Source: a virus
Reading direction: 5' to 3' (one strand)
Length of the DNA stretch: 64,000 nucleotides
Virus record (IMG/VR): IMGVR_UViG_3300022562_001652
Coordinates: 1 to 64,000 of that record
Part shown: positions 19,326 through 21,364 of the stretch, one piece after another
How positions within the stretch are numbered: position 1 is the stretch's first letter
How the letters are laid out: every line of letters starts with the position of its first letter
Program-made: the position numbers and the translations under genes
The notes under the pieces: generated by a model
What the model was told of the DNA's origin: nothing
Seen by the model: only the letters and a program-made list of their open reading frames with translations
Databases searched by the model: none

Positions 19326-19778
19326 TTAGAGTTTATCGCGCTTCGCGACGACCTTCAAACCAGGAGCATCTGCGTACCGCTTCTTTATTAGAGCGCACGA
19401 CACCTGAGCATCGTCTTTGTAGACAATCGACGTAAGAGCATCGAGGATCATGCGCGTGAGCTTGTCCACGTCCGGCTTGGCGGTGGGAATGGGAGGAGCG
19501 TCGTCCCGCATGACCTTCGACCTCTTCCCCGTGTAGAAGTGCTTCTTGGGCCGCACGCTGAGGAACGTGAGGTACAGACGTACTGGCCCTTCCGTCATCT
19601 CGTCCCCGTCCATCGCAGCTTCCGCCGCCACGGACACACGAGCCTTCCAGTCTGAGTGCCCTTTGTCGAGGCTCCGCTGGAAACGTCTCCCGTCCTTCCG
19701 AACCCCGGAGATCAGTGTTCCCTTCGGCTTGGCGACCCCGGGAACGAAGAACTCGATCCTCCTCATCTTCGAACCCAT
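19326..19778 (-). CDS. rusA: RusA-family Holliday junction resolvase
   Basis: VPGVAKPKG...KPDVDKLTRMILDALTSIVYKDDAQV. Confidence 0.92.
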   Translation of the reverse strand: MGSKMRRIEFFVPGVAKPKGTLISGVRKDGRRFQRSLDKGHSDWKARVSVAAEAAMDGDEMTEGPVRLYLTFLSVRPKKHFYTGKRSKVMRDDAPPIPTAKPDVDKLTRMILDALTSIVYKDDAQVSCALIKKRYADAPGLKVVAKRDKL

Positions 19779-20392
19779 TCCGTCCTCCACACGTTGTCCT
19801 CCCTCGTCATCTCTCGGTGCAGGCCTTCCGGGTTCAGCTCCACCTCGATGACGTACCTACCAGGATAAACGTCCGTCACGTCGAGCCACTGACAGAGCAA
19901 TTTATGGCCATACACGTCTGCCCACCCTACCGAAATGCCCTGCTCGTCGCACGTATATCGGGCCTCGGAAGTCCCGATCACGCGCTCGTCGTCTCGCAGG
20001 CAGAACGACTGCTTGTGAGTGGAAACCACCTCTTCGCCGTCCTCCTCCCGAAGAAGACGGTAGTCGGCCATGCCTTTGATGTGGACGTGTCCATGCGTCG
20101 GAGAGATCTCACCCAACGTCGGATCGGCGAGAAAGTCGACGGATCCTACGTTAACGATCGCCACGTCGAAGGTGAGGAGCTCGCGGATGCCGAGCTTGGC
20201 GCAGCCTTCGACGTCCACTGACGACCCAGGAAACACTCTGAAGGAGACCAGAGTAGGGGGCGCCATCATCAACGAAGCAGCCGGAACAAGGTTCGGGAGC
20301 TGGGCAGCATCGAACACGGCCGAGGCGTCGGGGAAAGAAACGACCTCGCTCCCCCCGCATGCTGCCAGGAAGATGGGCAGGAGACTACGCAT
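19763..20392 (-). CDS. Lysyl oxidase family lipoprotein
   Basis: Lipobox-like LLPIFLAAC; LLTFDVAIVNVGSVDF, HGHVH Cu site, HKQSFCLRD, YTC..QGISVGWADVY, CQWLDVTDVYPGRY, ELNP...E...DN. Confidence 0.9.
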   Translation of the reverse strand: MRSLLPIFLAACGGSEVVSFPDASAVFDAAQLPNLVPAASLMMAPPTLVSFRVFPGSSVDVEGCAKLGIRELLTFDVAIVNVGSVDFLADPTLGEISPTHGHVHIKGMADYRLLREEDGEEVVSTHKQSFCLRDDERVIGTSEARYTCDEQGISVGWADVYGHKLLCQWLDVTDVYPGRYVIEVELNPEGLHREMTREDNVWRTEWVRR

Positions 20393-20693
20393 CCGGCAAC
20401 ACGACTCCGTCAGCCAAGGCTATCTTCAGATCGGGATCGGAGAAGAGCTTCTTGTACAGAGCGTCAGGATAGGAATAGGTGACACTTACAGTCATTCTTC
20501 CTTGAAGGTCACGCATCTCCTCCTGCTTGACACTCACGATCTCAATATGATCGACCATGCTATGCAGTGATTCGTCCTCGAGCTGCAAGCGGAGCCAGTT
20601 CTTATGCTCCTCGAGCTGTACCTTCGCGTCCTCGAACATGTCGGCCAGGTTCATCTTCCTCATCGCACCCTCCTTTTCCGTTATCTGAACCAA
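20385..20693 (-). CDS. Hypothetical protein
   Basis: Operonic ORF; GGAGGG RBS before an internal ATG. Confidence 0.55.
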   Translation of the reverse strand: MVQITEKEGAMRKMNLADMFEDAKVQLEEHKNWLRLQLEDESLHSMVDHIEIVSVKQEEMRDLQGRMTVSVTYSYPDALYKKLFSDPDLKIALADGVVLPDA

Positions 20694-21364
20694 TGCTTCA
20701 GTGAATGCTCACAGATCTCGTCGACCTCACGTTCGGTGGCTCTCCTTGGTTCAGCAGAGATCCATCCCTGCCCCACCGGCCAAAACACCTTCGCGTGCTC
20801 TCTGTCCTCCCGAAACGTTCGATGCACCACCGTCACCGTCCCCGCGATGCAGGAAGTCCTGTGGATCTCCTCAGCCTTCTGGGAATAGCATGTCCCCGCC
20901 TCATAGATCCCGTCGGAAGTGCCGCTAGACAAAGAAACGTGTCCAAGATGGATCATCTTCCCCGGGTCTCTGAACTGCGCCACCCTCACCTTCTCGTCCT
21001 CGATAGGACCGCATAGGATCTCCTTGGTCATGTGAGGCAGGCAAACAGGAGAAGGTGGTCCTTCCACGTAGAGACGGTTCGAAAGGCGTCCTGCGATCAC
21101 GAATGACGTGAAGTCCCACGGGTGTGTATGGATGTCGGAAACGTTGGAAACACGAAAACGAGCATCCCACACATGGAGATGCACATCCTCTGAAATGTAA
21201 GTACGCAGCACGCCGAAACCTTGAAGGCTCCACTGGTACTCGCGTCTGTTCATCAAGATGCGTTTTGCTTGGACGATTATCTTCTCTTGGATACCTCGCA
21301 GGTCTCCGAATGTTTCCGCTCCTACGCTCACCAGCGTACGCAGGCCTTCATTTTCCGTACTCAT
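20681..21364 (-). CDS. Cupin-fold (double-stranded beta-helix) protein
   Basis: LHVW...DIHTHPWDFTSFVIAG...EIHRT...GTVTVV. Confidence 0.7.
   Translation of the reverse strand: MSTENEGLRTLVSVGAETFGDLRGIQEKIIVQAKRILMNRREYQWSLQGFGVLRTYISEDVHLHVWDARFRVSNVSDIHTHPWDFTSFVIAGRLSNRLYVEGPPSPVCLPHMTKEILCGPIEDEKVRVAQFRDPGKMIHLGHVSLSSGTSDGIYEAGTCYSQKAEEIHRTSCIAGTVTVVHRTFREDREHAKVFWPVGQGWISAEPRRATEREVDEICEHSLKHWFR

Follow-up and report, generated by a model that had tools for sequence, protein, structure and literature searches.

Lysyl oxidase (LOX) is a copper enzyme that, in animals, forms the cross-links of collagen. Such enzymes are also widespread in prokaryotes, where their function has been called enigmatic or cryptic (PMC4448552, PMC6452851). 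The only biochemically characterized prokaryotic LOX that we found, HTU-LOX of Haloterrigena turkmenica, is an active, copper-dependent enzyme that is sensitive to beta-aminopropionitrile, needs removal of its signal, and has a relaxed specificity that takes in Lys polymers, many primary and simple amines, several aminoglycosides, and polymyxin (PMC6452851). Viruses go unmentioned in the main evolutionary survey of the family (PMC4448552). Here, we describe a LOX gene carried by a phage, at positions 19763 to 20392 on the minus strand of a 64,000-nucleotide stretch (the window) that forms the first 64 kb of IMG/VR virus record IMGVR_UViG_3300022562_001652. An earlier note on this DNA had called the product a phage-encoded LOX family lipoprotein with apparently intact catalytic residues. 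The family, the fold, the catalytic residues, and the phage ownership of the gene are established. From the sequence and a structural model, we consider it likely that the product is a catalytically competent, exported, LOX-type amine oxidase made by a virulent phage that infects a probably diderm host.

The gene, taken from the open reading frame (ORF) list, has 209 codons and a TGA stop. Its product matched the Pfam profile PF01186 (Lysyl_oxidase) with an E value of 4.6e-28 and 98.7 bits, against a cutoff of 20.4 bits, and a genome-level PF01186 search gave the same outcome as the search with the protein. The match aligned residues 66 to 203 with profile positions 48 to 189 of 204. A phmmer search of PDB sequences returned human LOXL2 (5ZE3; E value, 1.4e-16), with the His triad, the Lys, and the Tyr in register. 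An AlphaFold2 model built with 28 homologues had a mean predicted local distance difference test score (pLDDT) of 89 and a predicted template modeling score of 0.80. With this model, Foldseek also ranked 5ZE3 first (E value, 1.5e-13; template modeling score, 0.76; root mean square deviation [rmsd], 2.2 Å), and VIA-align placed model residues 30 to 209 on LOXL2 residues 545 to 737 with a Z score of 21.8 and an rmsd of 2.0 Å over 177 residues, while the second-ranked VIA match was a generic beta-sandwich with a Z score of 8.9. We place the catalytic domain at residues 34 to 209 (positions 19766 to 20293, minus strand) on the basis of the Pfam and structural alignments. The protein carries the motifs LAAC (residues 9 to 12), THGHVH (residues 99 to 104), HKQSFC (residues 126 to 131), and GWADVY (residues 156 to 161), and residues 167 to 180 read CQWLDVTDVYPGRY. 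This motif set and the profile score far exceed chance. The earlier note had proposed a Pfam search and a structure prediction as checks on its LOX assignment, and both upheld it.

In human LOXL2, the copper-binding residues are His626, His628, and His630, the further catalytic positions are Lys653 and Tyr689, and the disulfides have been mapped (PMC9180022). The counterparts in the phage protein are a predicted copper-binding triad, H100-G-H102-V-H104 (positions 20081 to 20095, minus strand), and K127 (positions 20012 to 20014, minus strand) and Y161 (positions 19910 to 19912, minus strand), the predicted Lys and Tyr of the lysine tyrosylquinone (LTQ) cofactor. H100, K127, and Y161 were invariant in the family alignment, and H102 and H104 were conserved at 90% or more. 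The phage protein retained 24 of the 26 columns that are conserved at 95% or more in the other sequences, every catalytic position among them. It lacks the extra first His of animal LOX, as do other bacterial LOX (PMC4448552). Two LOXL2 disulfides have equivalents, C579-C695 (C64 and C167) and C657-C673 (C131 and C148). The C663-C685 pair is absent from the phage protein, which has R137 and W157 at these positions, and from the bacterial family as a whole, in which W157 is invariant.

The N terminus is laid out like a lipoprotein signal, with a basic residue before a hydrophobic stretch of 9 residues and with a canonical lipobox, L-A-A-C12. We annotated residues 1 to 12 (MRSLLPIFLAA-C, with the predicted cleavage before the Cys; positions 20357 to 20392, minus strand) as a signal peptide with a lipobox from the sequence and from the N termini of homologues. 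Under a simple rule, in which [LVI][ASTVI][GAS]C ends a hydrophobic N-terminal segment preceded by a basic residue, 19 of the 28 aligned homologues had this layout, and all of the closest homologues shared an MR-hydrophobic-AAC N terminus. When one genome of each prokaryotic species was scanned, at least 572 LOX loci came up, and of 80 bacterial genome loci roughly half also had a lipobox. Because this N terminus recurs in the closest homologues and in the bacterial loci, lipidation looks like a trait of the family. Residues 13 to 33 (positions 20294 to 20356, minus strand) would form a flexible tether between the predicted lipidated C12 and the catalytic domain; the first ~30 residues, at a pLDDT of about 55, are the only disordered part of the model, and the fold alignment starts at residues 30 to 34. 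Both the intact catalytic residues and the lipobox-type N terminus that the earlier note had described were thus borne out.

The source record is a 113,815-bp virus genome of the direct terminal repeats class that is rated 100% complete, and we confirmed an exact terminal repeat of 144 bp in it. The LOX gene lies within a long co-directional minus-strand block of phage genes, 4 kb from the gene for the large terminase subunit, TerL (positions 13891 to 15780). The block also encodes RusA, a family-4 uracil-DNA glycosylase (UDG), SbcC, SbcD, a UvsX-like recombinase, a DNA polymerase, helicases, a methyltransferase, and baseplate proteins. Immediately downstream of the LOX gene is the RusA resolvase gene (positions 19326 to 19766, minus strand; PF05866, E value of 1.5e-17; phrog_140), whose likely ATG (positions 19766 to 19764) overlaps the LOX stop as ATGA. 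Immediately upstream is an ORF for a 102-residue acidic protein (positions 20385 to 20693, minus strand) that had no Pfam or PHROG match; its stop overlaps the LOX ATG (ATGCGTAG), and a GGAG lies 12 nucleotides upstream of that ATG. Judged from the sequence, such overlaps at both ends of the LOX gene are a signature of translational coupling. No promoter or terminator specific to the gene rose above the level of shuffled sequence. The gene has a G+C content (GC) of 0.598 and a GC at third codon positions (GC3) of 0.729, compared with 0.577 ± 0.034 and 0.657 ± 0.074 for the phage's own genes, and its codon-usage likelihood falls at the 65th percentile of phage genes.

These results bear on the possibility that the gene is not phage-borne at all and reached the record through an assembly chimera or as host flank. 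The relatives of the protein are almost all bacterial, and we found no other viral contig with the gene, which would fit that explanation. However, the genome is complete and closed by its terminal repeat, the gene overlaps its neighbors at its start and stop codons inside the co-directional block near TerL, it resembles other genes of this phage in composition and codon usage, and an identical LOX protein is recorded on three contigs. We give a chimera or host flank almost no credence. The gene is truly phage-borne, as the earlier note had held, and a chimeric host fragment is very unlikely.

We found no integrase, with no match to the tyrosine (PF00589) or serine (PF00239) recombinase profiles, and the phage is probably virulent. 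A role for LOX in the lytic cycle, and not in lysogenic conversion, is therefore probable. TerL was closest to those of SPO1-like Bacillus myoviruses (Herelleviridae type), at 34 to 35% identity. Because of this low identity, an exact terminal repeat of only 144 bp, and a GC of 57%, we take the phage to be a very distant relative of cultured phages.

Relatives of the LOX protein were hard to find among viruses. There was no tblastn match in 50,697 GenBank phages, no PHROGs match at E values up to 1, and no structure resembling the model in BFVD below an E value of 0.007. Three motif-pattern scans of IMG/VR, one with the protein and two with alignments, gave no relative; these scans rest on motif patterns, so that other LOX subfamilies could be missed, and the window's own record, or records nearly identical to it, may be masked in the viral and metagenome scans. 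We also found no report of a phage LOX in the published literature. The survey of viral databases that the earlier note had proposed therefore agrees with its statement that no characterized phage example is known, and LOX in a phage context is rare and, as far as we searched, unpublished.

In a database of 5.8 billion clusters, the nearest protein was only 42% identical and lay on an 887-bp contig. The best identities to relatives were 42 to 46%, and those to bacterial members were 36 to 46%. An exact-word scan of metagenomes found no close orthologue, and a metagenome scan with a subclade alignment gave 151 relatives, every one at 47% identity or less. Myxococcota dominated the best 80 of the bacterial LOX loci, which also included Verrucomicrobiota, Burkholderiales (Sphaerotilus), Binatia, Planctomycetota, and others. 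Three of the Myxococcota loci (L009, L011, and L028) had two LOX domains in tandem, in one frame or as adjacent genes, which indicates local duplication of the family in that phylum.

We compared the phage protein with its bacterial homologs, as the earlier note had suggested, in two trees, one made with IQ-TREE from 95 rows and the other with FastTree from 168. It sat on a long basal branch of 1.0 to 1.2 changes per site in both trees, against medians of 0.24 to 0.31. It joined two homologues (P0002 and P0004) with a Shimodaira-Hasegawa-like support of only 71 at the base of the main clade, which the trees leave unresolved, and so no donor can be named. The earlier note had also thought of a Myxococcota-like host, and this idea was not borne out. 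Besides the basal position, the median GC is 0.70 for the LOX loci of Myxococcota but 0.572 for the phage, and TerL had a match in only 1 of 401 sampled Myxococcota genomes, which was weak (25% identity). We rejected a Myxococcota host as unsupported on this GC and TerL evidence. Three metagenomic loci among the best matches (L082 to L084) have a GC of about 0.57 and bacterial contexts. At one of them is a pseudopilin-like N terminus, a feature that we presume to be associated with Planctomycetes-Verrucomicrobia-Chlamydiae (PVC) bacteria and that we take as a hint only.

Beyond the window, at about 90.9 to 92.0 kb of the genome (positions 4916 to 5981 of L162, minus strand), there is a candidate lysis cassette of three genes. 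The first encodes a holin-like protein of 140 residues with a duplicated transmembrane module, and the second encodes an i-spanin-like protein of 114 residues with an N-terminal transmembrane segment and a coiled coil. The third is a small Cys- and Pro-rich, o-spanin-like ORF with an internal ATG that overlaps the preceding stop as ATGA; read from this ATG, it starts with MRALLLVTLLLEAC followed by the C of a noncanonical lipobox. Such a gene order is typical of spanin genes and, if the cassette is real, suggests a diderm host.

Several observations weigh against our reading of the gene as one for a working, exported enzyme with a role in the envelope. In the columns that are conserved at 80% or more, the phage protein keeps 82% of positions, compared with a family median of 94%, and this retention is the third lowest of 93. 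S58 and T99 stand where 91 to 98% of homologues keep a Cys pair, the counterpart of LOXL2 C573-C625. Taken with the long terminal branch and the lack of a close orthologue in the other viral or metagenomic contigs searched, these features would suit a passenger gene that does little or nothing for the phage, either one taken up from a bacterium and now drifting or one for a pseudo-enzyme that only binds. Against such decay, the frame is intact, every catalytic position and nearly all of the most conserved columns are kept, and the model is confident. Its codon usage has fully adapted to that of the phage, and translational coupling ties the gene to both of its neighbors, which implies long residence under selection. 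The same Cys pair is jointly lost in the nearest relatives, P0002 and P0004, and its loss is therefore a trait of the lineage and not a sign of decay. We regard a passenger gene as decidedly improbable, and on its alignment the phage protein reads as one of the most diverged members of the family, with fast divergence that did not bring decay.

The signal peptide is also very short, with the Cys at position 12 and only 9 uncharged residues after R2. A lipoprotein rule of the PROSITE type expects the Cys beyond about position 15 and six uncharged residues before the lipobox. No longer version of the ORF with an ATG, GTG, or TTG start exists, as there is a stop 10 codons upstream. An internal start at M42 or M43 would dispose of the atypical signal and leave a cytoplasmic LOX without a signal peptide. 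However, it is the first ATG that is coupled to the upstream stop and preceded by GGAG, and the lipobox N terminus is conserved in homologues, two of which (P0003 and P0007) have equally short signals. The fold begins at residues 30 to 35, such that a start at M42 would delete its first strand, and the disulfides and the copper and LTQ chemistry fit an oxidizing compartment. We consider an internal start highly improbable and retain the exported, lipobox-bearing form.

The search for partners and substrates gave further adverse points. When all of the phage ORFs were compared by tblastn with 160 bacterial and metagenomic LOX loci, LOX was the only gene in common, apart from two cases (L153 and L114). 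No collagen-like Gly-X-Y run was found in a real phage gene, and there was no obvious Lys-repeat protein. PHROGs profiles gave no support for the spanin annotation, and the physiological role of the phage LOX is purely our inference. We also found no second lipobox protein in the phage. In the first of the two cases, a 1,787-bp metagenome contig (L153; Ga0247727_10206949), positions 2 to 1356 hold a partial LOX and, after it on that strand, a RusA-like gene. The partial LOX is 36% identical to the phage LOX and has a long insert like that of one homologue (P0029), and the RusA-like protein is 29.5% identical to the phage RusA. The order of LOX and then RusA, the same as in the window, may be a weak hint of another LOX-carrying phage or prophage on a contig too short to judge. 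In the second case (L114), LOX is followed by a family-4 UDG that is 38% identical to the phage UDG; the neighbors look bacterial, and we took this synteny to be a coincidence.

Two other features near the LOX gene deserve mention in their own right. Two genes upstream of LOX, an ORF for a 227-residue protein (positions 20681 to 21364, minus strand) has a cupin-like HTHPWDF motif and weak matches to phrog_4784 (unknown function; E value, 1.2e-7) and to the "cysteine dioxygenase" phrog_4786 (E value, 4.6e-5). It has no Pfam match and no signal peptide, and it does not co-occur with LOX in the bacterial loci. Just upstream of the terminase block, ARAGORN called two tandem tRNA genes (positions 16945 to 17101, minus strand), a tRNA-Ile(aat) and a suppressor-type tRNA with the anticodon tta that would read TAA. 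The ORFs are long under translation table 11, and there is thus no sign of wholesale recoding.

Our model for the action of the protein is as follows. LOX would be translated together with recombination and repair genes from a long minus-strand operon. Its 11-residue signal and lipobox would direct Sec export, lipidation of C12, and cleavage, and, by the sorting rules of Escherichia coli, the Gly at position +2 would mark it for the outer membrane. A tether of about 20 residues would then hold the LOX domain in the periplasm or at the cell surface. In this oxidizing compartment, the predicted disulfides C64-C167 and C131-C148 would stabilize the fold, H100, H102, and H104 would bind Cu(II), and K127 and Y161 would self-process to LTQ. 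The mature enzyme could oxidize primary amines, most likely those of Lys residues in envelope proteins, to aldehydes with release of H2O2 and NH3, and the aldehydes could condense into covalent cross-links.

The purpose that we favor, tentatively and with a weak hold, is the modification or cross-linking of envelope proteins, which might hide receptors, shut out superinfecting phage, or stop progeny from adhering to debris. We lean this way because LOX is predicted to be tethered to a membrane and would be made within the lytic cycle. A lytic phage has kept the gene, codon adapted and in an early or middle operon, which suggests a payoff within a single infection cycle and therefore narrows the roles to fast chemistry on the envelope or on small amines. 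The second of these would have LOX act on small or soluble amines, such as periplasmic polyamines or cationic antimicrobials (aminoglycosides and polymyxin-type lipopeptides) that might otherwise kill the infected cell ahead of burst, or would have its H2O2 serve as a weapon or signal. HTU-LOX oxidizes many primary amines, aminoglycosides, and polymyxin (PMC6452851), the mature phage protein is acidic (pI 4.7), which suits cationic substrates, and no protein substrate is encoded nearby. A lipid anchor, however, fits envelope targets at least as well, and a phage with a short lytic cycle would gain little from slow detoxification. We judge the small-amine role unlikely and keep to modification of the envelope as the favored purpose.

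A more specific form of the envelope role, in which lipid-anchored LOX turns lysines of outer-membrane or periplasmic proteins into cross-linking aldehydes and so chemically masks receptors or hardens the envelope, such that superinfection exclusion or progeny protection is covalent and is brought about by an enzyme and not by a binding protein, seems to us quite unlikely. If true, it would be a new mechanism and would give prokaryote-type LOX a first physiological role. Should exclusion or cross-linking hold, an enzymatic class would be added to the tools with which phages remodel the envelope; if not, LOX is one more accessory gene. Horizontal transfer has been proposed to account for the patchy distribution of LOX, and the phage gene also shows a tangible means by which it could occur.

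Among known systems, the nearest in function to the envelope role are the superinfection-exclusion lipoproteins of phages (T5 Llp and the Cor family), which are produced in the infected cell and inserted into its envelope. They block receptors by binding and not by enzymatic oxidation. The likeness to the phage LOX is a functional analogy only, with no sequence or profile similarity; the LOX protein has no PHROG match, and its only structural relative is LOXL2. With LOXL2 (5ZE3) and animal LOX and LOXL1 to LOXL4, the phage protein shares the fold, the copper His triad, the LTQ Lys and Tyr, and two of five disulfides. Its identity to LOXL2 is about 30%, it has neither the domains of the scavenger receptor cysteine-rich (SRCR) type nor a propeptide, and it lacks equivalents of the LOXL2 disulfides C573-C625, C663-C685, and C732-C746. 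LOXL2 is secreted into the matrix, whereas the phage LOX is predicted to be lipid anchored, and the phage encodes no collagen or elastin substrate. HTU-LOX resembles it in type, being a prokaryotic LOX of one domain whose N-terminal signal is hydrophobic; HTU-LOX is archaeal and not a phage gene. The closest described proteins are the small, uncharacterized PF01186 proteins of Myxococcota, Verrucomicrobiota, Burkholderiales (Sphaerotilus), Binatia, and other bacteria, which have the same single domain in about 200 to 260 residues. Like the phage LOX, they begin with a short lipobox or signal and have the HxHxH motif, the Lys, and the Tyr; they also carry the invariant W157 where LOXL2 has Cys685 and lack the first His of the animal enzymes. 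The phage LOX differs from them in being a gene of a virulent phage, in its 36 to 46% identity and long basal branch, and in lacking the Cys58/Cys99 pair. Judged by these comparisons, it adds a new and divergent member to a bacterial family of small LOX proteins that was already known.

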